NCBI GenBank assembly: GCA_016932475.1
Contig: JAFGCU010000120.1
Location: 4,562 to 68,561 of the forward strand
From: Anaerolineales bacterium
Lineage (GTDB): Bacteria; Chloroflexota; Anaerolineae; Anaerolineales; RBG-16-64-43
Length of the DNA: 64,000 nucleotides
Reading direction: 5' to 3'
Shown here: positions 6,561 through 52,247 of the stretch, piece after piece
Position numbering within the stretch: position 1 is the first letter of the stretch
Layout of the letters: each line of letters opens with the position of its first letter
Position numbers and translations under genes: made by a program
The notes under the pieces: generated by a model
The model's input: the letters and a program-made list of their open reading frames with translations, nothing else
The model's database searches: none
What the model was told of the DNA's origin: nothing

Positions 6561-7409
6561 TCATGCCGCCGCCTGCCATCCCGCGGCGATGATCCGGCTT
6601 TGTTTATGGGCAAGGATCTCGTCGGTCATGCCCCATTCCTGTAGAAAGGATGGATAAAACTCGCGGATGCGGTCGTCGGCTTGAAGCGCCTTCTCGGGGC
6701 ACACGCACATGCAGTGCATGCACTCGATGCATTTCGCCGGATCGGATGTGCCGCTCTGCGCGTCCATCGCCTGCGCCGGACACTCGGCTTCGCACACGCC
6801 GCACAGCGAGCAATCCTTGACCCGCACCGGCTGGGTCCATTTGCGTTCCATATTGGCCGGCGCGTCCACCCGGCTCTTCCAGGCCAGATCGTATCCGAAC
6901 GTTTTCTGGAGCGAGAAGGCTTCGGTGTTCGCGGGATCGAAGCGCTCCAGCGCCAGCGCAGCATATTCGCGCCCAACGGAAAAATCCGCGTCGTTCGGCC
7001 TGTCCGGCAGAAGCCGCCAGCCGGCGAGGTTGAAGGAATGCCTGCCCAGGAACTCCGCCGAAAGGCGGACGCGGAACCCGGCCTGCGTCAGCAGGGTGTA
7101 GATGTGGTACTGGGCATGGCCCGGAGTTCGGCCGCCGTAAGTGACAAACAGCGCGCACGGCTTCCCCCCTCCGTGGAGCGTTCGTATCCAGTCGCTCATC
7201 ACGCTCGGCGGAAAATCGGCGTACACCGGCATACCGAACAGGAAGGCATCGAAGCCGGCAGCGGGGAACGGCTTTTGGCGCGCCGCGAATGCGGTGAGGT
7301 TGAAAAGCTGCGCCTCGCGCCCGCGCCGGACCAACTCGCCGTGTATGACGCCGGCATATTCCTCCGTGACGTGCGTTCCAGAAAAAAAGATGACGGCGAT
7401 TTTTTTCAT
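6561..7409 (-). CDS. Flavodoxin-like domain fused to a 2x[4Fe-4S] ferredoxin domain
   Basis: The N-terminus MKKIAVIFFSGTHVTEEYA is flavodoxin-like. The C-terminus has CSLCGVCEAECP and CIECMHCMCVCP, two CxxCxxCxxxCP clusters. Confidence 0.8.
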   Translation of the reverse strand: MKKIAVIFFSGTHVTEEYAGVIHGELVRRGREAQLFNLTAFAARQKPFPAAGFDAFLFGMPVYADFPPSVMSDWIRTLHGGGKPCALFVTYGGRTPGHAQYHIYTLLTQAGFRVRLSAEFLGRHSFNLAGWRLLPDRPNDADFSVGREYAALALERFDPANTEAFSLQKTFGYDLAWKSRVDAPANMERKWTQPVRVKDCSLCGVCEAECPAQAMDAQSGTSDPAKCIECMHCMCVCPEKALQADDRIREFYPSFLQEWGMTDEILAHKQSRIIAAGWQAAA

Positions 7410-7430
7410 GAGCGCTCATGCTCCTATTGA

Positions 7431-7453
7431 CCCCTCCCCAGAGTGGGGAGGGG
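7431..7453. terminator. C/G-rich hairpin directly after the MBL hydrolase gene (no U tract)
   Basis: cccctcccca gag tggggagggg gives a 10-bp perfect stem. Confidence 0.5.
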
Positions 7454-7470
7454 TGAGAGGGAAAACGGAT

Positions 7471-8400
7471 TTATTCCTGTTGGAAAGTTCTGGCACGCGA
7501 AGGACATAGTTCGACGGGCATCGGGTCCCCATAACACGCCATGAAACGTCCGGGGGATATTTCCTCCACCCGGAACGGATCGCCGGTATGAGCCGCCAGC
7601 AATGTCGCCCGAGATTCGGCGAATTGGTGGAAAAAACGCCTCCGCTGGGATCGGGCCAGTTCGCGATCGAAATCCCAATCCGCGGCCGACCACTCCGGAT
7701 GCGGCGCCTGGGCCGGGTGATGGATCAGGTCCCCGAGGAACCACACGTTCCGATCCTCCAATTCGAAAACCAGGTGGCCCGGCGTATGGCCGGTGGTGTC
7801 GTGAACCCGGACCGGGCCGATCCGTTCGCCGCCGCGCGCGAACTGCACGGATCCGGCCTCCACCAGCGGAAGGATGCTGTCGTTGATGCACGGGTGCCGC
7901 GCCGGATCACCGGCCGGGAATCCGTTCCAGTATGCCCACTCGCGCGGGGCAAGCACATATTTCGCGCCCGGGAAGGTCGGCTCCCAGCGATCTCCGTTCC
8001 ACGTGGTCGCCAGGCCGACATGATCCGGATGCATGTGGGAAAGGAAGACATATTCCACATCGCCAAGGCCGACTCCCGCGGCAGCCAGAGTCTCGCGGTA
8101 CGGCAGGTTCTGATGATCCCAGTACGGTTCATCCGGGCGGGCCTTTCCGTTTCCGGATCCCGCCTCGATCAGGATCGCTCGATTGCCTTGTGTCACAAGG
8201 AACATCTGAGTCGAGGAAACGATCATTCCCGTTTCGGTCAGGCGGCTGTTCTCACCGGACGGGGATGCTTTGCGGATCGCATCCGCGGGAATCCCCGGGA
8301 AGAGCACGCCGTGCGGCATCGCTTCGCCCTCCCATTCGATGATCTGGAACACTTTCAACTCGTCAAACACATGCGGACCGCGGATTTCCAATAAAGTCAT
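7471..8400 (-). CDS. MBL-fold metallo-hydrolase
   Basis: Contains the SHMHPDHVG (HxHxDH) motif and the downstream TTGHTPGH. The start MTLLEIR at 8400 follows GGAGG. Confidence 0.85.
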   Translation of the reverse strand: MTLLEIRGPHVFDELKVFQIIEWEGEAMPHGVLFPGIPADAIRKASPSGENSRLTETGMIVSSTQMFLVTQGNRAILIEAGSGNGKARPDEPYWDHQNLPYRETLAAAGVGLGDVEYVFLSHMHPDHVGLATTWNGDRWEPTFPGAKYVLAPREWAYWNGFPAGDPARHPCINDSILPLVEAGSVQFARGGERIGPVRVHDTTGHTPGHLVFELEDRNVWFLGDLIHHPAQAPHPEWSAADWDFDRELARSQRRRFFHQFAESRATLLAAHTGDPFRVEEISPGRFMACYGDPMPVELCPSRARTFQQE

Positions 8401-9244: not shown

Positions 9245-10270
9245 TTACGCGGATTGCCGGACGACCAGTTCGACCGGAACGGTTGTGTGCGTGACGGCGC
9301 GCGTCCGGATGTATTGCAGAAGGTTCTGGGCCAGCAACTTTCCCACCAGCGGAATGTTCTGGCTGACGGTTGTGAGCGTCGGGGTCACTTTTTCCGTGAT
9401 CGAGAGGTTATCGTACCCGACCACCGCGACATCTTCCGGCACGCGTTTCCCGATTTCCCGCAGCACCTGCATCGCCCCGATTGCCATCAGGTCGCTGTTG
9501 ACGAACACCGCATCCAGATCCGGCGCGCGGTCGAGCAAAGAGCGCATTTTTTCCGCGCCGGATTTGTCGGAATAATCGCCGTGCACGACCCGCAGCGGGT
9601 CAACGATCAACCCCGCCTCTTGGAGGGCGGTGGAGTAGCCTTCGAACCGGAGCGAGACTTCCTTCTCCTCGGACGGCCCGCCCAGGAAGGCGATCCGTTT
9701 CCGGCCAAGCCCGGCTAGGTGCCCGGCCGCGAGTTTCCCGCCCGTCAAATCGTCCCCGATCACCGTGCAATAGGAGTATTTCGGGTGCGGGATGCCCCAG
9801 GCGATGAACGGGGCATCCATCTCCACCAGCATTTTGATGTGCGCCTGCTTTCGGGTCGAGGTCATCAGGATAAAACCGTCCGCCCGCCCGGCCGCCAGGT
9901 GCTGGGCCGGCCAATCGGCGTCGCACGGGTCCACAAACAGCATCAGCAGGTCGTACCCTTGCTCCTTCAGCCCGCTGGTAATCCCGCCCAGAATCTCCAT
10001 GGTGAACAGATCGCACACGGAAAACTGCTTGTACATCGAATGGGTCACGAAGGCGATCGTGTTGCTCTGTTTCAGGGTCAGCCGCCGGGCCGGCATGTTG
10101 ATCTGGAAATGCCGCTTTTTTGCGATGGCGTTGATCTTCTGCTTGGTTCCATCGCCGATCAGCGGGTTGTCGTTCAGCGCGCGCGAAACCGTCGACTTGG
10201 AAACACCCGCTTCCCGGGCGATGTCGGCGATCGTGCAGGCTTTCTTCTTTTCCACAGCCCTGGGCTTCAT
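9245..10270 (-). CDS. LacI-family transcriptional regulator
   Basis: TIADIAREAGVSKSTVSRALN is the helix-turn-helix, followed by a periplasmic-binding-protein-like sugar-binding fold. The likely start is MKPRAV at 10270. Confidence 0.85.
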   Translation of the reverse strand: MKPRAVEKKKACTIADIAREAGVSKSTVSRALNDNPLIGDGTKQKINAIAKKRHFQINMPARRLTLKQSNTIAFVTHSMYKQFSVCDLFTMEILGGITSGLKEQGYDLLMLFVDPCDADWPAQHLAAGRADGFILMTSTRKQAHIKMLVEMDAPFIAWGIPHPKYSYCTVIGDDLTGGKLAAGHLAGLGRKRIAFLGGPSEEKEVSLRFEGYSTALQEAGLIVDPLRVVHGDYSDKSGAEKMRSLLDRAPDLDAVFVNSDLMAIGAMQVLREIGKRVPEDVAVVGYDNLSITEKVTPTLTTVSQNIPLVGKLLAQNLLQYIRTRAVTHTTVPVELVVRQSA

Positions 10271-10282
10271 CTTGTCAGAATT

Positions 10283-10298
10283 ATGCAACCGGTTGCAT
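10283..10298. promoter_or_regulatory. LacI-type operator candidate (16-bp perfect palindrome), autoregulatory position
   Basis: atgcaacc|ggttgcat lies 13 nt upstream of the proposed LacI start. Same core as 9211-9230. Confidence 0.55.
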
Positions 10299-10996
10299 GA
10301 TTTGTCAAGAGGGAAATGGTTTTTTTTCAAGCGGGCCGCAATGTCAAAAAAACGAGGAATGGATAAACCAATAATTTGTTTCCTTGGTGCCTCGGTATCT
10401 TGGTGGTTTTATGTCTTTTTTTTATCCGGAAAACCAATTGACCGCAAAGTCAACAAGACGCGAAGAATTCAATAAGTGAGTGCAGGATTTCCTGGGTGCC
10501 TTGGTCCCTGAGTGTCATGGTGGTTTCCGGTCAGTTGGTCAGCCGCATTGCCGCAGGGCGCACCTCCCCCTACGGATCGTCCAACTGTCCGGCTTCGTGC
10601 CGAAAGCCATCGATCTTCCGGAACAACGAAATCCATCCGCCGACGTAAGCGCCCAAAGCGGCATCGTTCACTCCCGGCGGATTTGCTCCCGGGCGGAGGA
10701 GAAAATCGGTCACATCGTCCCGCAGAAATTCACCGCGTCGATGCACCAACGGGAGGATATCTATTCCATCGGCGCACTGAGGCAAACCATCGTGGCGGCA
10801 AGCTTGATGCCCTCCTACGCAAGTTTCGTTCGTTTCGGGACCGCAGGGTCGCCGCGTGGCCATCGATTCCCCCGAATAGCAGCACCATCACCCAGAACAG
10901 CGGTTGGGCGCGGACCGGGATTCCGAACAGGATGCAGTCCGCTCGAAGCGGGTCGGTGAAGGTGATCCGGTATGCCGGATTCGAAATCCCGCTGGA

Positions 10997-11779
10997 TTAC
11001 GCCGCGATGAGCGCCAGAATACCGAGGATCGACAAGAGGACATTGCCGACCAGATGCGCGACGAACGCCGGCCAGATGCTTTTGCTTTTATAGCAGATGA
11101 ACGCAAACATCAGGCTGGAGATCAGCAACACCGGGAGCAGCCAGAGCTGAAAGGTATGATACAGGGCAAACAGTACCCCGTTCAGAACCCAGCTCCAGCC
11201 GCCGAAGCGCGACAGTTTCGGCAGCATCCAGGCCCGGAAGTACAGCTCTTCGCTCAGGATGTTCAGGATCAGCACCAACCCGATCAGCGGTAAAAGCCCA
11301 TACTGACCCGTCAGCGCAAGCCCGGGCGAGACCACGTTCATCTCCGCGGTTGCCGCATTGACGGAGGGATTGAGGAAAAAAGGCATGTATCCGGGAATGG
11401 TGAACCCGACCGCGTTAAGTACCGGCGGGATAATCCCCTGTACACCGGCCGCCAGCACCACGCTGAGAACCGCGAGACCAAGGCAGATCGCCCATTGCTT
11501 CAGGGATATTTTCTTCAGGCACATCCGCGTCCAAAGCGAGAGGCCCATTTCCTTAGCCTCCCGGCGCAGGAGGAAGAGCGCAATCAGCACAAAGATGAGC
11601 AACATCGCGCCGGCCACCCACGAGTAGGCGATAAGTACCGGCGTTCCGTTGCGGACGACCGCCGGCAGGACGGCATGGAATCCGACAAAGGCGAAAGCGC
11701 TTGGCGCGAACACGGCCAGCAATGATTGGAGGATCGATAATTGACGCGCGTTGCGCCAATCGAACGAATTGGCATTCAT
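10997..11779 (-). CDS. CPBP-family intramembrane glutamic endopeptidase (CAAX protease/Abi)
   Basis: Carries SEELYFRAWMLP (EExxxR), FALYHTF (FxxxH) and AHLVGN (HxxxN) motifs across multiple TM segments. Start MNANSF at 11779. Confidence 0.8.
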   Translation of the reverse strand: MNANSFDWRNARQLSILQSLLAVFAPSAFAFVGFHAVLPAVVRNGTPVLIAYSWVAGAMLLIFVLIALFLLRREAKEMGLSLWTRMCLKKISLKQWAICLGLAVLSVVLAAGVQGIIPPVLNAVGFTIPGYMPFFLNPSVNAATAEMNVVSPGLALTGQYGLLPLIGLVLILNILSEELYFRAWMLPKLSRFGGWSWVLNGVLFALYHTFQLWLLPVLLISSLMFAFICYKSKSIWPAFVAHLVGNVLLSILGILALIAA

Positions 11780-43163: not shown

Positions 43164-44513
43164 TTATTTGGCCACGAACACCCACAACATCACCGAGAGC
43201 GGAGCCAGTTCCACCGGATCGCCGTTTTCAAACGCCGGCGGGGCGACCGGTTCCGCGTTGTGCGTTGCGTCGAACAGGTAGGTTTCCTCAAGCTTGTACG
43301 CGCCGCCCTTCTCCAGCTGCAAAACCATGGTCACCGCCGCGTCGCCGCGGTTGACGAAGACCGCGGTCAGCGCGCCGTCGTCGCGCTTGGCGGCAAACAG
43401 CGAAATCATCGGATCGTCGGCGTTGGCCGCCAGCAGATGGTTCCCGAAGCGCTTCCAAATCTGGAACACGTAATAGCTCGGACGCAGGTTATACGAGTCC
43501 ATCAGCGCGTGCCCGGCGCCCGAGGCCCCGGTCTTCAAAGTCCAGTAGGCAAGCAGCTCCGGGCGCTGGCGGATCATGCGCCCCATCACGTCCGCCGTCC
43601 AGAGCGCGCCCAGGAACGAATCCGGCGAGGTTTCCGCGCCCGAAACGTTGGACCAGTTCGAGTTCCATTCCATGACCCCGACCGGTTTTTCCTTCCCGGT
43701 TACTTCCTTAATTACCCTTCTTAGGTCGGGGATGATATTGTCCCATTCCGGCGTGTTGGCCAGCAGTTCGGTCTTGGTGGGCGTTCCGCAAGTCCGGCAG
43801 GAGGGGAACGGATAGCGGTGGACGGTGATGATGTCCACCAGGTCGGCGTTCAGCTTCAGGAACTCGCGCAGGTAATCCCGGCCGTTGGAATCTTTCGGAT
43901 CGACGGCCGGATCCCCGCTGAACTGGTGTGTGTCTGGGCCGTAGAGGATGATCGTCGGGTCGACCTTTTTCATCGCCTGGGCGAATTCCCGCCAGCGCTT
44001 GGGGTAGGCAACGGCGTCCAACGCCTGATCCCCCAGCGACGTATCCGCCTCATAAAGCGAGGACTCGTTGCCGATGCTCCAGTATTTCACACCATACTGC
44101 TTCTCGATGTTCACGTAGCGGACCCACTCGGCGGCCGCTTCCGGCGTGCTGCCCGGAAGCCGCAGGGTGAAGCTCGGCTCGGCACCGATCATCTTCGCCT
44201 GGGCGATGTAGTTGTCCACCTGGAGGGTGGTGATGTCGTTGCGGTCGCCCCAGTTCCCTCCCGGCCAGCGCAGGAAGGTAATCCCGGAGTTCTTGACCGG
44301 TTCGAGGTTGTTCACACCCAGGTCCGCCCACGGTCCGTGGTTGGTCCCCAGAACATATTTGCTGATCTCACCCAGATCCGAGGCGGTATCGATGAGGAAA
44401 ACGCCCGACGGATAATTTGTCGGGGTCGGCGTCGCGAATTCGGGCTGACAGGCCGACAAAAGAAATAGAACCACACAGAAGGACAGCGAATGAAGCCGGA
44501 TATTGGGGTTCAT
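43164..44513 (-). CDS. Secreted lipoprotein glycoside hydrolase, clan GH-A fold (family not assignable by eye)
   Basis: Lipobox LLSAC. LRWPGGNWGD, YWSIGNE (acid/base Glu) and VMEWNSNW (nucleophile Glu candidate) resemble GH44/GH51/GH30-type (beta/alpha)8 enzymes. Start at 44513. Confidence 0.6.
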   Translation of the reverse strand: MNPNIRLHSLSFCVVLFLLSACQPEFATPTPTNYPSGVFLIDTASDLGEISKYVLGTNHGPWADLGVNNLEPVKNSGITFLRWPGGNWGDRNDITTLQVDNYIAQAKMIGAEPSFTLRLPGSTPEAAAEWVRYVNIEKQYGVKYWSIGNESSLYEADTSLGDQALDAVAYPKRWREFAQAMKKVDPTIILYGPDTHQFSGDPAVDPKDSNGRDYLREFLKLNADLVDIITVHRYPFPSCRTCGTPTKTELLANTPEWDNIIPDLRRVIKEVTGKEKPVGVMEWNSNWSNVSGAETSPDSFLGALWTADVMGRMIRQRPELLAYWTLKTGASGAGHALMDSYNLRPSYYVFQIWKRFGNHLLAANADDPMISLFAAKRDDGALTAVFVNRGDAAVTMVLQLEKGGAYKLEETYLFDATHNAEPVAPPAFENGDPVELAPLSVMLWVFVAK

Positions 44514-44658
44514 TTTTCTCTCCAATAAGGAATGGCTCCGCAGGTATACGCGGATGGGCGCCGGCAAGAACGGGAAGCGATCCGGGCGGCCCGCGCGGCC
44601 GCCCGGATTTTCCGGAAAGCGAAGTCTCGCACCCGGCACAGCCCCGGCAAAGAGAGAT

Positions 44659-45972
44659 TTATTTTTCCACGCCGGTGATGACGATGCCCTGGACAAAGAA
44701 GCGCTGGGCGGCGATAAACAGGATCAGCGGCGGGACCAGGGAGACCAGCGCGCCGGCCTGGATCAGTTCCGGATGCTGGCCGAACATGCCGTTGAAGCGG
44801 GCCAGCGCCACCGAGACCGGCTGCATATCCATCTTGGTCGTGAGGTAGATCAACGGGCCGAAATAATCGTTCCAGGACCAGACGATGTGGAAGACGGTCA
44901 CCGCCACGATCACCGGGTAGGATTGCGGGATGATCACCGACCACAGGACCCGCAGCGGAGTCGCGCCGTCGATCATCGCGCTCTCATCCAACTCGCGCGG
45001 CAGGGTCATGAAAAATTGCCGCAGGAGGAAGGTATCGTAAGGGTTGGCGAAGAACGCCGGGACGATCAGCGGCAGCCAGGTTCCCACCCAGCCGATCTGG
45101 CTGAAGAACAGGAACTGCGGGATGATGGTGACGGTCCCGGGCAGGAACATAACCGAGATCAGGATCATGAACAGCAGGTCCCGGAAGGGAAAGCGGAACC
45201 GGGAAAATCCATACGCCACCAGGACGCATGAGATCAGCACCCCGATGGTCGTGGTGAGCGTATAGTAGAAGGTATTCCACAATACCTGGGGGTAGTTGAT
45301 GTCGTTCCACATGCGGATGAAATTGTCCCAGGCCGGAGTAAACACCCACGGGCGCTGCAGGCCTTTATACGAACCGCCGTTCCACGCGATCGGACCCGCG
45401 GCGATGTTTTCCGGGTCGATGAAGACGGCCCCCTTCTGGTACCCCTTCAGCATCGCCAGGTTTTTCTCCACACCGTCGATCGGAACCGTGATGACGTCCA
45501 GGGTTTTGCCCACATAATCGCCCAGATGGATCGTCTCTTCGACGGGTTCCGCCAGCGCCTTGGCGACCATCAGGGTATACGTGCCCGTGTTGCCGCCCTC
45601 ATAGACCCAGGTCGGGGGCATTACTGGCCAGATCGGCGCATTGGCGAAGGCAAATTGCTCCTGCGTTTTCAACGACGTCATAATCATGTACAAAAATGGA
45701 ATCAGGAACACGATCAGCAGGAGCGTGGTGAAGGCGGTGATCAGGATCGAGGGAACGGCTTTGAGGAAGCGCGACGGGCGGTACACGGTCGGGATCGGGA
45801 GCGCAGCCTCCGCCGCGGCCGCGCCGGTTGGCGTCCGGATCCGCGCGGGAGCCGCCCGCGCCGGAACGGACCGGCGGGCGCTGTGCGCCACGGGCTTGTT
45901 CTTGTTTCCCCGGGCCGCCACCTTCCTCCGGATAGCCCCTTTGGTTGTGGACTTTTGCGTTTTGGAAGGCAT
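44659..45972 (-). CDS. Carbohydrate ABC transporter permease, MalG-type paralog 3, with a ~60-aa basic N-terminal tail
   Basis: The C-terminal two thirds are almost identical to the two upstream paralogs (…LPRELDESAMIDGA…AAQRFFVQGIVITGVEK). The tail is MPSKTQKSTTKGAIRRKVAARGNKNKPVAHSARRSVPARAAPARIR. Confidence 0.85.
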   Translation of the reverse strand: MPSKTQKSTTKGAIRRKVAARGNKNKPVAHSARRSVPARAAPARIRTPTGAAAAEAALPIPTVYRPSRFLKAVPSILITAFTTLLLIVFLIPFLYMIMTSLKTQEQFAFANAPIWPVMPPTWVYEGGNTGTYTLMVAKALAEPVEETIHLGDYVGKTLDVITVPIDGVEKNLAMLKGYQKGAVFIDPENIAAGPIAWNGGSYKGLQRPWVFTPAWDNFIRMWNDINYPQVLWNTFYYTLTTTIGVLISCVLVAYGFSRFRFPFRDLLFMILISVMFLPGTVTIIPQFLFFSQIGWVGTWLPLIVPAFFANPYDTFLLRQFFMTLPRELDESAMIDGATPLRVLWSVIIPQSYPVIVAVTVFHIVWSWNDYFGPLIYLTTKMDMQPVSVALARFNGMFGQHPELIQAGALVSLVPPLILFIAAQRFFVQGIVITGVEK

Positions 45973-46165
45973 GTGTGTCGATATCCTTTCTGCGGTCCGG
46001 CATCCATGCGAACCGCAAGCAACGCCGAGCGATCTCACCCGGATTTTATCGCCGTTCCTTCCGCGTCCGGGGGTGGAACAAACTCAGCCTGACAAAATGT
46101 CAGGCTGAGAGGAAAAGCATATGGTGTTTCCACGGGGGCCTCGCAACAATCCTTCATGGCCGAGG

Positions 46166-47305
46166 CTACTTCTCCACGCCGGTGATGACGATGCCCTGGA
46201 CAAAGAAGCGCTGGGCGGCGATGAACAGGATCAGCGGCGGGATGAGGGTCACCAGCGCGCCGGCTTGGATCAGTTCCTGGCGTTGCACATACATCCCGTT
46301 GAAGCGCGCCAGGGCCACCGAAATCGGCTGAAGGTCCACCTTGGTCGACAGGTAGATCAGCGGGTTGAAGTAGTCGTTCCAGGCCCAGACGATGTGGAAG
46401 ACGGTCACCGCCACCATGACCGGGTAGGATTGCGGGATGATGATCGACCAAAGAATCTGGAACGGGTTGGCGCCGTCGATCATCGCGCTCTCATCCAACT
46501 CTCGCGGCAGGGTCATGAAGAACTGCCGCAGCAGGAACGTGTCGTAGGGATTGGTGAAGAACGCCGGGACGATCAGCGGCAGCCAAGTCCCCACCCAGCC
46601 GATCTGGGTGAAGAACAGGAAGGTCGGGATGACGGTTACCGTCTGGGGCAGGAACATGACCGAGATCAGGATCATGAACAAAAGGTCCCGGAAGGGGAAG
46701 CGGAAACGGGAGAAACCGTACGCCACCATCACGCACGAGATCAGCACCCCGATGGTCGTGGTGAACGCGTAAAAGAACGTGTTCCACAGCACCTGCGGGT
46801 AATCGAGCGCGTTCCACATCTCGGCGTAGTTTTCCCAGGCCGGGGAGAAGACCCATGGCCGCTGCAGGCCCTTGTACGATCCGCCGTTCCAGACGATCGG
46901 TTCCGCGTTGGGATTGGCGACGTCGAGGAAAATACTTCCCTTTTGGAAGCCTTTGATTAACCCCGCGCTCTTTTCCGACCCGTCCGGCATCGGCACGCTG
47001 TAGACTTCGAGGGTCTTCCCGGCGATGGCCTGGTAATCGATGGTTTCCTCCACCATGGTTCCCACTTTATTCACTTGAACCGTGTGGGAACCCCGGAGTT
47101 CCGCCGGAACGACGAACGTGGGGGGAGCCACCGGCCAGATCGGAGCGTTCGGCAGGGTGAATTGGGCCTGCGTCTTGAGGGACGTCATGATCATGTATCC
47201 AAACGGTATCAGGAACAGGATAAGGAGAATCGTCGTAAACCCGGTCACCGTGATGGACGGCAGGGCTCTTTTAATTCTCGGCGTTCGATAGACTGTCGTC
47301 TCCAT
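46166..47305 (-). CDS. Carbohydrate ABC transporter permease, MalG-type paralog 2
   Basis: Has the EAA-loop region LPRELDESAMIDGANPFQILW and 6 TM segments. GGGAGAAA precedes the ATG at 47305. Confidence 0.85.
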   Translation of the reverse strand: METTVYRTPRIKRALPSITVTGFTTILLILFLIPFGYMIMTSLKTQAQFTLPNAPIWPVAPPTFVVPAELRGSHTVQVNKVGTMVEETIDYQAIAGKTLEVYSVPMPDGSEKSAGLIKGFQKGSIFLDVANPNAEPIVWNGGSYKGLQRPWVFSPAWENYAEMWNALDYPQVLWNTFFYAFTTTIGVLISCVMVAYGFSRFRFPFRDLLFMILISVMFLPQTVTVIPTFLFFTQIGWVGTWLPLIVPAFFTNPYDTFLLRQFFMTLPRELDESAMIDGANPFQILWSIIIPQSYPVMVAVTVFHIVWAWNDYFNPLIYLSTKVDLQPISVALARFNGMYVQRQELIQAGALVTLIPPLILFIAAQRFFVQGIVITGVEK

Positions 47306-47458
47306 TACTATTTCTCCCAATGCTTCATTTAATTTGCCGGGTTCTAAAAAAACCTTCGCGGTTTTCCCCGGCCCGATCCGTATTCCCCGCCCGACTTCCG
47401 CGGGCCGCGGACACGGCGCAAGACCCGTGCGATCTTTCCGGACCGTTACCCGCGCAGG

Positions 47459-48595
47459 CTACTTTTCCACTCCGGTGATGACGATGCCCTGAACGAAGAA
47501 CCGCTGGGCGGCGACGAACAGGATCAGCGGCGGGATAAGAGTCACCAGCGCGCCGGCCTGGATCAGCTCCGGCCGCTGGCCAAACATGCCGTTGAAGCGG
47601 GCCAGCGCCACCGAGACCGGCTGCATGTCCATCTTGGTCGAGAGGTAGATCAGCGGCGTGAAGTAGTCGTTCCAGGCCCAGACAATATGGAAGACCGTCA
47701 CCGCCACGATCACCGGGTAGGATTGCGGGATGATGATCGACCACAGCACCCGCATCGGGCTGGCGCCGTCGATCATCGCGCTCTCGTCCAGCTCGCGCGG
47801 CAGGGTCATGAAGAACTGCCGCAGCAGGAAGGTGTCGTATGGGTTGGCAAAGAACGAAGGGACGATCATCGGCAGCCAGGTGCCCACCCAGCCGATCTGG
47901 GTGAAGAACAGGAACGTCGGGATGATGGTGACGGTCCCGGGCAGGAACATAATCGAGATCAGCAGCATGAACAGCAGGTCGCGGAACGGGAAGCGGAAGC
48001 GGGAGAAACCGTACGCCACCAGGATGCACGAAACCAGCACGCCGACGGTCGTGGTGAACGCATAAAAGAACGTATTCCACAGCACCTGCGGGTAGTCGAT
48101 CGCGTTCCACATCTCGGCGAAGTTGCCCCAGGCCGGCGAGAAGACCCACGGCCGTTGCAGCGACCGGTAGGACCCCCCGTTCCATACGATCGCGCCGGCC
48201 CCGGGGTTGTCCGGATCGATGAAGATGCTTCCCTTCTGAAACCCCTTGACGAGCGCCAGATCCTGCTCCGATCCATCTTCCATGGGGACGGTATAGACAT
48301 CCAGGGACTGCCCGGCAAATGCCGTCAGATCGATGGTCTCATCCACAAAGGCGCCGACCTTGTTGACGCTGACGGTAAACATGCCCGAAAGGGAATCCGG
48401 CGCCATGTACTTGGGCGGGGCCACCGGCCAGATCGGCGCATTCTGCAGGGCGAACTGAGCCTGCGTTTTCAGCGACGTAAGGATCATGTACAGGAACGGG
48501 ACCAGAAACAGGATCAGCAGAAGCGTGACAAAGGCGGTTACCAGTATCGACGGCAAAGCCTTCGCGATCCTGGAAGGGCGGTAGGCAGTCTCCAT
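47459..48595 (-). CDS. Carbohydrate ABC transporter permease, MalG-type paralog 1
   Basis: Same family. It starts 24 nt after the MalF-type permease stop. Confidence 0.85.
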   Translation of the reverse strand: METAYRPSRIAKALPSILVTAFVTLLLILFLVPFLYMILTSLKTQAQFALQNAPIWPVAPPKYMAPDSLSGMFTVSVNKVGAFVDETIDLTAFAGQSLDVYTVPMEDGSEQDLALVKGFQKGSIFIDPDNPGAGAIVWNGGSYRSLQRPWVFSPAWGNFAEMWNAIDYPQVLWNTFFYAFTTTVGVLVSCILVAYGFSRFRFPFRDLLFMLLISIMFLPGTVTIIPTFLFFTQIGWVGTWLPMIVPSFFANPYDTFLLRQFFMTLPRELDESAMIDGASPMRVLWSIIIPQSYPVIVAVTVFHIVWAWNDYFTPLIYLSTKMDMQPVSVALARFNGMFGQRPELIQAGALVTLIPPLILFVAAQRFFVQGIVITGVEK

Positions 48596-48619
48596 CGTTG
48601 CACCAATCCGGGATCCGGG

Positions 48620-49612
48620 TTATTTATCCGACGCGTAATACACCCATTTGCGGGCGGTGGCGAACAGGAAGAATGTGACGATCAGGATGATCAGGAAGAG
48701 CACCCAGGCCAGGGTCGCCCCGTACGACATGTTGTGGTAGAAGAAGAACGTCCGATAAAGCAGCAGGTTATAGAACATCGTCGCGCCGCCCGGAAACCCG
48801 GTGCCCTGGTTAACCACCAGCGGAACCAGGAAGTATTGAAACAGGCCGACGACGCTGAGGATCAGGTTGTAGAACACAACCGGTGAAATCATCGGGAAGG
48901 TTACGTTCCAGAACGTGGACCACATGCCGGCGCCGTCGACTTTCGAGGCGTCGTAGAGCTCGGTCGGGACGGATTGCAGGCCGGCCAGCTGGGTCAGCAT
49001 GGCGTTGCCGATTCCCCAGATGCCCATGATGATGAAGGTTGGATACACCCAGTTGACGTCGTTAACCCACAGCGGCACAGCGGATTTCGGCATGCCCAGC
49101 CACATCAGGAACTTGTTGACCCAGCCGTTTTCCGGGTTCAGCACGCCGCCCCACAGGATGACGCTGGCGACGAACGGGATGATGTAGGGCATGTAGAACG
49201 CCGAGCGGAAGAAGTTCTGGCCTTTGAGGTTCTTGTTGTTCATCAGCAGCGCGATGAAGAGCGGGAGGAAGATCGCCACCGGGAGGGACAGCAGACCAAA
49301 CCGAAGGGTCACCTGCATGGCTCCCGGAGTTTCACTGCCCGATTTGCCCCAAACCGTGCCGTCTTTGAGCAGGGTGGCGTAGTTGTCGAACCCGACCCAT
49401 TTCGGAGCGGCGAGGATCTGGTCTTCGATCTTGAGATCCATGAACGTGAACAGGAAGGTCGCGATCATGGGGATGAGCGTGAAGAGCAGAAAACCGATAA
49501 TCCACGGCGAGATGAACAGCATCCCGTTGCGGAATTCCCGCCTGGCCAGCGGGGGCATATTCCGCAGGGTGTCGGCCGAAGGCAGTTGGGGTAAGCGAGT
49601 CAGTTGCTCCAT
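48620..49612 (-). CDS. Carbohydrate ABC transporter permease, MalF-type
   Basis: 330 aa with 6 TM segments and the EAA-like region ASKVDGAGMWSTFWNVTFPM. Confidence 0.85.
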   Translation of the reverse strand: MEQLTRLPQLPSADTLRNMPPLARREFRNGMLFISPWIIGFLLFTLIPMIATFLFTFMDLKIEDQILAAPKWVGFDNYATLLKDGTVWGKSGSETPGAMQVTLRFGLLSLPVAIFLPLFIALLMNNKNLKGQNFFRSAFYMPYIIPFVASVILWGGVLNPENGWVNKFLMWLGMPKSAVPLWVNDVNWVYPTFIIMGIWGIGNAMLTQLAGLQSVPTELYDASKVDGAGMWSTFWNVTFPMISPVVFYNLILSVVGLFQYFLVPLVVNQGTGFPGGATMFYNLLLYRTFFFYHNMSYGATLAWVLFLIILIVTFFLFATARKWVYYASDK

Positions 49613-49682
49613 TATGACGCTCCGTTGTAAGTTATCGGGCGGGCGATTTTCATCGCCCGCCCGATAGTATCTCAGGAACTAA

Positions 49683-51116
49683 TTACTTGGCGAAGATCGT
49701 GTTGAGATCGGCCAGGTACGTGGCAATTTCCTTGTCCAGGTCGAGCCCAGGGGTGTTCCGCAGCAGATTGGCGAACGTATTGCCGCGGGTCCAGGCCTCG
49801 TTGTAGTTCGGCATGTAGCCTTCCGCGCTCGGGGCGTCCGGGTAGGACAGGCCGGCGATGACGGTGTCGAGGTTCTTAACCCACGGGAACGCAACTGCCT
49901 TCTGCTCGCGCCAGGCTTCCTGCGCGGAGATCAGCGCGGGAATCGCGCCGTACGCAGCCGCCATATCCTCGGAGCCGACGATGAGGATCTGAACCGCGTC
50001 GGTGACGAGGTACTTCAGGACTTCGAAGGCCTGTTCCGGAACCTTGGTGCCCTTCCAAATGCGGAAGGTGTCGGCATCCACGCGGCCGGCGACGGTGCCA
50101 TTGTAGGACGGCAGAATTCCGGCGTCCCAGGTATTGACATCGCCTATGCAGCAGGTGTACCAGAACGGCTGGTCGGTCATGGCTACTTTATTGCTGTTGA
50201 AGGGGTTGCCACCGGCGTAGTCCTGGCTGCCTTCAACCGCGGCATTGGCCATGAAGGGCTGATCGCCCCAGATCGCATCGTAGGTCCACTTCCAAGCGTC
50301 GACCCACGCATCGGGAGCCTGGGCGGTCTTGCCATCGGCCGCAACCATCGAGCCGCTGGCGAAGTAGGAGCCCCAGTAGTTCGGGTGATTGTTGTACTGC
50401 CAAGTGAAACCGTATTGCTTGACGTCGTCCTTGTTGAAGCCTTCTTCCGTCGAGTTCAAACCCGCTCCGTCGATGGTGAGCAGTTTCGAAACGGCGGTCA
50501 GGGTATCCCACGACCAGTCCACTTCGCTGCCGTCCGGCATCGTGTACTTTTCGCCGTAGTTGGCGGGCGGGTACGCAAGACCGGCTTCGTCGAAGAGCTT
50601 GGTGTTATAGAAAACGACCGCCGGATAAACCGCGAACGGAAGGCCGACCTGCCCTTCCGAGGTCTCGTATGCGGAGACCAGGGCCGGGTTGAAGATCGAG
50701 CTGTCGAAGCCGCTCGAGGTCATGTAGCTGGAGATGTCCAGCCACTGCCCGTAGAAGGCGTTCGAGCCGCCCCAGCCTACCGGTCCGATGATGTCGGGGC
50801 CGTTGCCGGAAGCGATCTGGGTCGAGAGAACGTCCTTGGCGCTGTCGAAGGGGACGATTTCCAGGATCAGGTTGATGTCATCCTGCATCGCGTTGAACTT
50901 GTTCACAACTTCGAGTTCAGCGCGAACCTGAACCGGATCGGTTCCGGTCCCCATGCCCACGAACCAGCGGACATCCACGGCGCCCGGCTTGGCGGGAACC
51001 GCGGTATCGGCCGGCTTGACGGTCGGTTGATCGGCCGCCGGGGTGGCAGTGCCGCACGCCACGAGCAACATGCTGAGAACGGTCAGCGCCGTCAAAACAA
51101 CAAAAATTTTACGCAT
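49683..51116 (-). CDS. ABC transporter extracellular solute-binding lipoprotein (sugar family)
   Basis: Signal peptide plus lipobox (LLVACG). 477 aa. AAGGAGA precedes the ATG. First gene of the transporter operon. Confidence 0.85.
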   Translation of the reverse strand: MRKIFVVLTALTVLSMLLVACGTATPAADQPTVKPADTAVPAKPGAVDVRWFVGMGTGTDPVQVRAELEVVNKFNAMQDDINLILEIVPFDSAKDVLSTQIASGNGPDIIGPVGWGGSNAFYGQWLDISSYMTSSGFDSSIFNPALVSAYETSEGQVGLPFAVYPAVVFYNTKLFDEAGLAYPPANYGEKYTMPDGSEVDWSWDTLTAVSKLLTIDGAGLNSTEEGFNKDDVKQYGFTWQYNNHPNYWGSYFASGSMVAADGKTAQAPDAWVDAWKWTYDAIWGDQPFMANAAVEGSQDYAGGNPFNSNKVAMTDQPFWYTCCIGDVNTWDAGILPSYNGTVAGRVDADTFRIWKGTKVPEQAFEVLKYLVTDAVQILIVGSEDMAAAYGAIPALISAQEAWREQKAVAFPWVKNLDTVIAGLSYPDAPSAEGYMPNYNEAWTRGNTFANLLRNTPGLDLDKEIATYLADLNTIFAK

Positions 51117-51227
51117 TTCCTATCTCCTTTTCTCCTCGAACAAGAATTCAGAACAGTCGATTAACGTACCGTATCGTGCGAAAACCAATTTCCGCGCTTT
51201 ATCTTCTGGTACCACCTCCTTTCGCAT

Positions 51228-52247
51228 TCATTGGCCGATGAGATCCATACACAGACCTGAAGAGGAGCGAATAACCAGTTCCGTCGGCAGGACCAGACGA
51301 TGCGGCGGAGCCGTTCCCTCATTAACAATCTGGATCAGCGTTTCCGCGGCCAATTGCCCCATTCCCTGAATACTTTGGCGGACCGTGGTAAGCGGCGGAT
51401 CCATGTGCGCGGCCGATGGAATGTCGTCGAATCCCACAACGGCCACATCTTCCGGAATTCGTTTGCCCGATTCCCGCAATGCGCGCAACGCGCCCACGGC
51501 CATGGTGTCGCTCGCGACAAAAACGGCATCCGGGTTCTGAGGTATCAGGCGCATCATGCTGGTGTATCCGCCGCTTTCCGAAAAGTCACCCTCCACGATA
51601 AGAGCCGGGTCGGGGCTCATGCCGCGCTCGTGGAATGCATGTTCATAGCCTTCCCGGCGGTCGATCCCGGCGATCATGTTGTTTGGACCGGTGATGGTGG
51701 CCACCCGGCAACGGCCCAGGCGGAGCAGGTGCACGACCGCTTCGCGCGCGCCTTGAAAGTTGTCGGCATCCAGATAACTCAGATCGGTTCGTGTGGGATG
51801 GCGCCCGATGAGCAGGAACGGCAGACCGGCCTTGGTCAGGGCCTCAAGGATGGGATCATCAATGAGATAGGAGGCAATGACCATACCGTCCAGGAGGCTG
51901 TCCGAAACCAATTGATGGATTTTATTTTGTTCTTGTTCCGGATTGGTCAACCACAACATGACCGAATAATCTCGGGCGTTGCAAACCGCGGTGATGCCTT
52001 GAATAAGCCTTGGATAATACGGATCGGTGAAAAGCGAAGACTGCGCAGTCGGCAACACCAAACCAATAATTCTTGTCCGCCCGGAAGCCAACCCCCGCGC
52101 CACGGAATTGGGCCGATAATTCACTTTCCGAATAACTTCCTTGATACGCGCGCGGGTAGATTCCTTTACATTCGGGTCGTTATTGATCACACGGGAAACC
52201 GTGGACCGCGATACGCCGCTCAGCTTGGCGACTTCTTCAATCAACAT
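51228..52247 (-). CDS. LacI-family transcriptional regulator
   Basis: MLIEEVAKLSGVSRSTVSRVINN is the HTH, followed by a sugar-binding fold. Confidence 0.85.
   Translation of the reverse strand: MLIEEVAKLSGVSRSTVSRVINNDPNVKESTRARIKEVIRKVNYRPNSVARGLASGRTRIIGLVLPTAQSSLFTDPYYPRLIQGITAVCNARDYSVMLWLTNPEQEQNKIHQLVSDSLLDGMVIASYLIDDPILEALTKAGLPFLLIGRHPTRTDLSYLDADNFQGAREAVVHLLRLGRCRVATITGPNNMIAGIDRREGYEHAFHERGMSPDPALIVEGDFSESGGYTSMMRLIPQNPDAVFVASDTMAVGALRALRESGKRIPEDVAVVGFDDIPSAAHMDPPLTTVRQSIQGMGQLAAETLIQIVNEGTAPPHRLVLPTELVIRSSSGLCMDLIGQ

Follow-up and report, generated by a model that had tools for sequence, protein, structure and literature searches.

In type I ATP-binding cassette (ABC) importers, specificity is usually ascribed to the binding protein, and the known routes by which such importers diversify are extra binding proteins and shared ATPases. 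The closest described systems, MalFGK2-MalE and LpqY-SugABC, consist of an SBP_bac_1 binding protein, a MalF/SugA-type permease and a MalG/SugB-type permease, with a PF00528 core that carries the EAA loop. The same set of components is encoded on the minus strand, at 43164–52247, of a 64-kb stretch of DNA from an uncultured Anaerolineales bacterium (hereafter the window, to which all coordinates refer), but MalFGK2-MalE and LpqY-SugABC each have one MalG-type gene, whereas this locus has three consecutive ones, termed G1, G2 and G3. The best explanation for the cluster is a CUT1-type (type I) sugar ABC importer, the MalG-type subunit of which was amplified in place to three isoforms. With a probability of about 0.5, G1, G2 and G3 are alternative isoforms that share a single MalF-type subunit (F) and an ATPase from elsewhere in the genome; we infer how they pair, how they would affect specificity and what the hairpins in the spacers do.

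The gene order proposed by an earlier, sequence-only reading of this DNA, namely a binding protein, a MalF-type permease, three MalG-type permeases and a clan GH-A lipoprotein, is borne out by the open reading frames on the minus strand. The partners expected for a MalG-type subunit, an SBP_bac_1 binding protein and a MalF-type subunit, are thus present. As that reading also noted, no ATPase accompanies them: all frames of the 64-kb window lack both the ABC Walker-A and the LSGGQ motif. An ATPase gene located elsewhere is ordinary in the CUT1 family, which includes the shared ATPases MsmK, MsiK and MsmX. In G1–G3, PF00528 is the sole Pfam match and covers the C-terminal ~180 residues, with scores of 51.5–54 bits against a cut-off of 26.4. 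The EAA coupling loop LDESAMIDGA(x)P(x3)LWS(x)IIPQSYP (consensus EAA-x3-G-x9-I-x-LP) is invariant in the alignment of the three copies. Searches with G1 clearly separate the two permease types, with E values of 3e-23 for SugB and merely 1e-3 for SugA in the PDB (phmmer), and of 7e-36 for UgpE and 6e-5 for UgpA in NCBIfam. Structural similarity search with Foldseek placed the SugB and MalG chains on top for the AlphaFold2 model of G1, with an E value of 2.5e-11 and a TM-score of 0.71 (normalised to SugB) for SugB. In this model the first transmembrane helix (TM1) spans residues 9–41, and the helical core, which begins with TM2 at residue 168, superposes on SugB. G1–G3 are predicted to have six transmembrane helices with the N-terminus inside the cell, an orientation suggested by the Lys/Arg-rich N-terminus. 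On every feature checked, the individual G genes are ordinary MalG-type genes. What is out of the ordinary is the arrangement, with three MalG-type subunits for one MalF-type subunit and one binding protein, and with a large, predicted folded insert in the MalG-type subunit.

Each isoform consists of two parts: a variable N-terminal module, comprising the cytoplasmic N-terminus, TM1 and a predicted external β-rich domain of ~120 residues, and a constant module of TM2–TM6 with the EAA loop. Overall, G1–G3 are pairwise 77–80% identical in amino-acid sequence. The TM1 segment (residues 1–45) shows 70–78% identity among them, the insert between TM1 and TM2 (residues 46–165) 54–68%, and the core (residues 166–378) 86–89%. 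The sequence-only reading had described the loop between TM1 and TM2 as about half conserved, which holds once the copies are aligned, and the C-terminal cores as nearly identical; the cores are indeed far more conserved than the insert, but at ~88% and not higher. It had also judged this loop to be much longer than in ordinary MalG-type subunits. The alignment by hidden Markov model agrees, because G1 residues 156–372 correspond to SugB residues 54–272, which leaves ~100 extra residues in G1.

In the AlphaFold2 prediction, the insert forms a seven-strand β-rich folded domain (residues 58–138) with a predicted local distance difference test score of ~88, and the same domain is obtained for the insert alone or within full-length G1. 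SugB and MalG have a short loop between TM1 and TM2 in place of the ~120-residue insert of G1–G3. In the maltose system of E. coli the large external domain is the P2 loop of MalF and not a part of MalG, whereas here it resides in the MalG-type subunit. A scan of 1.84 billion representative proteins found the insert in 154 clusters only. In the near-full-length matches (~360–390 residues), the insert is located at about residues 45–170, as in G1; the remaining matches comprise many fragments and a few proteins in which it sits at other positions of a longer chain. With regard to the fold, a vague resemblance to SH3-/Tudor-like barrels appeared at E ≥ 0.5, and the full model matches the membrane core alone; no fold was assigned.

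To define paralog-specific residues, positions at least 85% conserved inside each of the three ortholog groups were compared between the groups. The conserved residue differs between the G1, G2 and G3 groups at 12 of 52 such positions in the insert and at 8 of 171 in the core; the TM1 segment has 12 of 30, a count inflated by alignment columns that are unique to an extension of G3. At one site the groups carry LSG, LRG and GGNTG, and at another DYQAIAG is found against NLGDYVG. Across the aligned orthologs, the predicted external domain of each paralog has a conserved set of residues of its own. The extension of G3 comprises 59 residues (~45796–45972); the first 60 residues of the protein include 14 Lys/Arg and a single acidic residue. 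What had been read as a Lys/Arg-rich tail of ~60 residues therefore has the proposed composition, but is an N-terminal extension. Every G3 ortholog possesses it, with 13–16 Lys/Arg and 0–2 acidic residues per 60, and its sequence itself is poorly conserved. In a more distant two-copy relative (L085), an in-frame, 68-residue Lys/Arg-rich version lies 5′ of the called start of the second G copy (L085 3386–3589).

When one genome per species was scanned and metagenome contigs were looked up in addition, ~70 related loci with the same operon (denoted by L numbers) emerged, nearly all from Anaerolineae. A single G gene is present in ~55 of them. Arrays of three copies, each orthologous to G1, G2 or G3, were found in L001, L002, L078, L079/L080, L081 and L082, which amounts to at least six independent assemblies beyond the window, from different studies; the G2 orthologs are 86–93% identical. 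These loci share with the window a synteny of acetyl-CoA synthetase, MFS transporter, deacetylase, the operon, a CpXC protein and a histidine kinase. The same synteny surrounds L075–L077, which have two copies of G1 and G2 type without G3 and to which L082, with G3, is a sister lineage, and also L087, which has one G copy. Copy numbers of one, two and three, which the sequence-only reading had left to be compared in related genomes, thus occur in one conserved neighbourhood. In another locus, L086, the two copies hardly differ beyond TM1, with amino-acid identities of 89% in the insert and 93% in the core.

The G copies are intact, with no internal stop in any copy of any locus examined. Among ortholog pairs, ω (the ratio of nonsynonymous to synonymous substitution rates) is 0.03–0.20 in the core, 0.05–0.25 in the insert and 0.13–0.65 in the short TM1 segment. 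Given intact copies and low ω, all three copies are maintained by selection, and the disabling mutations that the sequence-only reading had considered did not turn up. The array breaks short-read assemblies: L003 ends after G1, L004 is a 1.6-kb fragment with G2, and L005 ends just past the first G gene. Three-copy arrays can therefore be missed, and the copy number of G is easily under-called in such assemblies.

Fourfold-degenerate sites, compared as the uncorrected proportion of differences over codons for which the two sequences agree in the encoded amino acid, revealed a mosaic history. Paralogs of the same genome differ by 0.58 in the TM1 segment, 0.53 in the insert and 0.28 in the core; the corresponding values are 0.36, 0.39 and 0.27 for orthologs, and 0.65, 0.59 and 0.50 against the single-copy relative L083. 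With TM1 segment and insert pooled, the difference is ~0.55 between paralogs and 0.37 between orthologs, and the N-terminal modules of paralogs are nearly as diverged at these sites as the outgroup. The core is able to reach 0.50, as the comparison with L083 shows, yet the cores of paralogs remain at about the level of orthologs. Paralog cores are also slightly closer within a genome (0.281) than across genomes (0.312). As the relation of paralog to ortholog divergence differs by segment, the cores were homogenised long after the N-terminal modules split. Neighbour-joining trees gave a consistent picture: for the N-terminal third, the G1, G2 and G3 clades have bootstrap values of 100, 100 and 97.5%, whereas for the core the same ortholog clades collapse to 5, 25 and 19%.

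Well-supported chimeric copies occur in relatives. In L078, the N-terminal third of copy 1 (6786–7913) groups with G2 of its own genome (100%), and the core groups with its own G3 (99%). The copy is a three-part chimera that matches G2 of its own genome in the N-terminal third and its own G3 at codons ~185–330, and that resembles G1 at the 3′ end. A Sawyer-type runs test was significant in L078 (p ≤ 0.003) and L079 (p = 0.001), with a range of 0.0005–0.003, and a sliding nearest-neighbour scan detected further patches in L082 and in the insert of the L001 G3. The two copies of L085 display the same pattern, with fourfold differences of 0.80 in the TM1 segment, 0.50 in the insert and 0.20 in the core. 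Trees first suggested an independent duplication in L085, an idea called into question by the G3-type hairpin and the Lys/Arg-rich extension of its second copy; for the same reason, the G3 type may predate the clade. GC-biased conversion was considered as well, since third-position GC is 0.87–0.92 in the core against ~0.78 in the N-terminal third. This contrast is uninformative, because third-position GC of the core is almost as high in single-copy relatives (0.84–0.85).

The genes of the array differ in their spacing. G1 follows F after 24 nt and has a weak Shine-Dalgarno sequence, and G2, G3 and the hydrolase gene lie behind spacers of 153, 193 and 145 nt, respectively. The sequence-only reading, in which each paralog had its own Shine-Dalgarno sequence and a spacer of 145–195 bp, was right for these three spacers and wrong for G1. 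G2 has its own Shine-Dalgarno sequence, GGGAGA. Each of the three spacers contains a hairpin (Table 1). The one between G1 and G2 is weak, and a related CCGCGG-AAAA-CCGCG..GGTTTTT element is present in the G1–G2 spacer of orthologous loci. The terminator-like hairpin between G2 and G3 occurs once in the window, and its stem is kept in 7/7 multi-copy loci amid variable flanks, though shortened in L082; a similar hairpin is found in L085. The GC-rich element between G3 and the hydrolase gene, ATCCGGGCGGC...GCCGCCCGGAT, recurs in L001, L002, L081 and L075. In single-copy loci, the hydrolase gene starts ~26 nt after G (L087) or abuts it (L083), and because the gap between G and the hydrolase gene is short or absent there, the hairpin spacers came with the amplification. 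We infer that the hairpins cause partial termination or transcript processing, which would lead to unequal expression.

Other observations on the spacers are as follows. The stretch GCATGCGGTTCGCATGGATGCCGGACCGTAGAAAGGA (45973–46082, minus strand), 3′ of the G2–G3 hairpin, contains a second hairpin that ends at the Shine-Dalgarno sequence of G3 and is conserved in 6/7 multi-copy loci; it may be an element of the 5′ untranslated region that controls translation of G3 or stability of the transcript. An Rfam scan of the operon returned a single, sub-threshold match, to PtaRNA1, at 44575–44650 (minus strand) over the GC-rich hairpin, which is probably due to chance (29 bits against a gathering score of 47, E = 0.015). 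No sigma-70-like promoter was found in the spacers on the coding strand. The duplication unit was also sought through homology among the three spacers, but their local alignment scores fall within the shuffled range.

Table 1. Genes of the importer cluster and hairpins in its spacers, in the order of the operon.
Feature	Coordinates	Strand	Basis
LacI-family regulator, head of the cluster	51228..52247	-	Pfam LacI, Peripla_BP_1, Peripla_BP_3
Solute-binding lipoprotein, SBP_bac_1, 477 aa	49683..51116	-	Pfam; lipobox LLVAC read from the translation
F, MalF/UgpA-type permease, one copy	48620..49612	-	PF00528; best NCBIfam matches UgpA, MalF
G1, MalG/SugB-type permease, 378 aa; insert encoded at ~48101-48460	47459..48595	-	PF00528; SugB/MalG matches; AlphaFold2 model
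Weak A-run/T-run hairpin, G1-G2 spacer	47346..47368	-	Fold no better than shuffled, z = -0.6
G2, MalG-type permease, 379 aa; insert encoded at ~46808-47167	46166..47305	-	PF00528
12-bp hairpin CTCAGCCTGAC-N-GTCAGGCTGAG followed by TTTGTT, terminator-like, G2-G3 spacer	46083..46109	-	Terminator scan; -21.1 kcal/mol, z = -6.9 against shuffled
G3, MalG-type permease, 437 aa; insert encoded at ~45300-45660	44659..45972	-	PF00528
GC-rich hairpin between G3 and the hydrolase gene	44580..44608	-	-32.3 kcal/mol, z = -2.5
Clan GH-A-like glycoside hydrolase lipoprotein, 449 aa	43164..44513	-	Weak Pfam matches GH39, GH44; lipobox LLSAC from the translation

Outside the G array, the SBP_bac_1 lipoprotein is the single match in a tblastn search of the window and hence the only binding protein of its kind there; its distant matches in the PDB are sugar-binding proteins. 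In the PDB, enzymes of GH51 and GH79 weakly match the hydrolase lipoprotein, and an attempt to assign its family or substrate returned nothing beyond weak clan GH-A matches, so that none was assigned. Its gene is near the transporter genes in most related loci, either upstream of the regulator or directly 3′ of the G gene. The LacI regulator is likewise syntenic in most of them. A second LacI-family regulator, 33% identical to that of the operon, is encoded 40 kb away (9245–10330, minus strand); the open reading frames scanned around it encode an aldo-keto reductase, a ferredoxin-like protein, a metallo-beta-lactamase-fold protein and an Rce1-like protease, and no transporter genes.

The related loci offered several further observations. 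In L083 (1–14176), the nearest single-copy relative, the operon lies among genes for GH94, a melibiase-type alpha-galactosidase, GH130, a GH5 ‘cellulase’ and an AXE1 esterase, and these neighbours hint at mannan- or glucomannan-type oligosaccharides as the substrate. In L005 (5052–8915) and L037 (1899–4562), F and G are preceded by a tandem pair of binding-protein genes, which is the conventional way of diversifying the same operon. The MalF-type gene of L081 (4237–5212) is broken into two pieces, which encode 70 and 232 residues and lack residues ~52–70; this could be either a real lesion or an assembly error. In L025, L031, L040, L044 and L046 (~10001–11160; metagenome-assembled genomes of the MFD series), the single G gene matches as two pieces in different frames. 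Genes for LacI, F or the binding protein are likewise in two pieces in some of these genomes. Sequencing or assembly frameshifts seem more likely than real pseudogenes.

Building on the anatomy of the locus, the retention of its copies, their paralog-specific conservation and their mosaic history, we propose that the one MalF-type subunit and an ATPase from elsewhere in the genome would serve as partners to each of the G isoforms, giving three versions of the translocator. These would differ in the external-domain module alone, which, by analogy with the structures of MalFGK2-MalE and LpqY-SugABC, would be placed where the binding protein docks. The external domain could then influence how the binding protein docks, how substrate is handed over or which binding protein is chosen. 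The uniformity of the core may reflect strong purifying selection together with episodic conversion between the tandem copies, and conversion tracts that extend into the variable module would mostly not be retained. Both the constraint on the core and its tolerance of conversion would follow from the need of the constant module to fit shared partners. G1, directly after the MalF-type gene, is probably the default partner, and the conserved hairpins probably make the expression of the genes behind them (G2, G3 and that of the hydrolase) graded or conditional. From the sequence pattern, interchangeable subunits that retune docking or specificity are plausible. A stronger version remains tentative, in which the three isoforms compete for one F and one ATPase, each with a distinct and hitherto undescribed external β-rich domain by which the docking partner or substrate is selected or modulated, and in which segment-limited conversion keeps the shared interface uniform. 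If it is true, the specificity of a type I importer would lie partly in the membrane subunit and not in the binding protein alone.

Several results weigh against this proposal. No positive selection is indicated in the insert, where ω is well below 1, although the test is weak because silent sites there are near saturation. A Foldseek search with the insert alone against the PDB found no fold relative (best E = 0.5), and so no function is indicated. The operon encodes one binding protein, which leaves no obvious alternative docking partners. In the single-copy orthologs L083 and L087, the core is 85% and the insert 57% identical in amino-acid sequence. Since the insert evolves fast in single-copy orthologs too, its divergence need not mean new specificity, and the pattern of a slow core and a fast insert does not by itself require gene conversion. 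Part of the contrast between core and insert at fourfold sites is likewise a regional effect, as orthologs also show it. Moreover, the runs test detected no significant recent conversion tract among the copies of the window itself (whole gene, p = 0.42, 0.14 and 0.027, uncorrected with 21 pairs tested; core alone, p = 0.55, 0.37 and 0.14). The proposal of the sequence-only reading that gene conversion keeps the cores uniform is thus backed by the fourfold data and by the chimeras in L078 and L079, but not by a recent tract in the window. Our conclusion from these comparisons is that the cores were homogenised around the base of the clade and occasionally since, and that most of their present uniformity is explained by purifying selection.

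Among the other explanations, the one nearest to three alternative isoforms is a more specific version of it, in which each isoform serves a different binding protein encoded elsewhere and the amplification multiplies docking sites. The topology of the MalG family and the AlphaFold2 model place the variable module on the side of the binding protein, of which the operon encodes one, and the duplication of the binding protein in L005 and L037 instead of the permease argues that the system diversifies at this interface. However, the His/LAO and Opp systems accommodate several binding proteins on one unchanged translocator. Isoforms dedicated to separate binding proteins are given a low probability here.

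The copies could instead be redundant and kept for dosage or condition-dependent expression, the divergence of the insert being the relaxed evolution typical of this region. That the insert is the fastest-evolving part in single-copy orthologs as well fits such redundancy, as do the shift in copy number among close relatives (three in L082, two in L075, where G3 is absent), the nearly identical inserts of the two copies in L086, and the hairpins between the copies, which would give graded expression. Yet each of the three insert types is conserved in at least six species-level lineages under an ω of 0.05–0.25, the residues fixed in each paralog differ, and redundant copies in a converting tandem array would be expected to homogenise fully or decay. 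Mere redundancy is accordingly given a low probability here.

A pairing of G paralogs with each other, for example of G2 with G3, would produce a second translocator without a MalF-type subunit. Homodimeric membrane domains do exist in other type I importers (ModB2, MetI2), and the long hairpin spacers set G2 and G3 apart from F and G1; but in all CUT1 systems with a solved structure, including MalFGK2, SugABC and AlgM1M2, a MalF-type subunit is joined to one of MalG type, the two-copy L075 and the single-copy L087 keep the same operon frame, and no sequence feature points to a new interface, which makes such pairing very improbable. Finally, the suspicion, voiced in the sequence-only reading too, that the triplication is an assembly artefact, or that the duplicates are decaying, gains some colour from the short-read contigs that break in the array (L003, L004 and L005), but is refuted by copies that differ by ~20% at the protein level and by more in the DNA of the N-terminal third, by the same arrangement of three orthologous copies in at least six further independent assemblies, and by the intactness of all copies under purifying selection.

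Three alternative isoforms on shared partners would find the nearest counterpart in concept in the group II energy-coupling factor (ECF) transporters, where alternative specificity subunits (S components) use one shared energising module. The analogy is functional only: the ECF transporters are of an unrelated fold and family, have no binding protein, and bind the substrate directly through the S components, and the sharing of partners in the present locus is our proposal. HisJ/LAO and Borrelia OppA1-5 resemble the locus in that one component is duplicated and the rest is single, as L005 and L037 do with the binding protein; in those systems, however, it is the binding protein that is multiplied, and here the membrane subunit. 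The mosaic of G1–G3, with one segment homogenised and chimeric copies in relatives, is similar to the segmental concerted evolution of tuf genes and of constant/variable surface-protein cassettes. Unlike the cassette systems, the locus has no evident silent cassettes or dedicated recombination machinery; the G copies have their own start sites and, as predicted from the genes, appear to be expressed, and conversion is episodic. The full-text literature searched describes no ABC importer with alternative tandem permease paralogs, which is not proof of novelty.

Altogether, the locus is a natural, evolutionarily conserved case of membrane-subunit multiplication with a clear split into variable and constant parts. 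If the isoforms are true alternatives, translocator subunits would contribute to the selection of partner or substrate in these importers, the insert would represent a new external domain to study, and the array would provide a compact example of segment-limited concerted evolution that keeps a shared protein interface.

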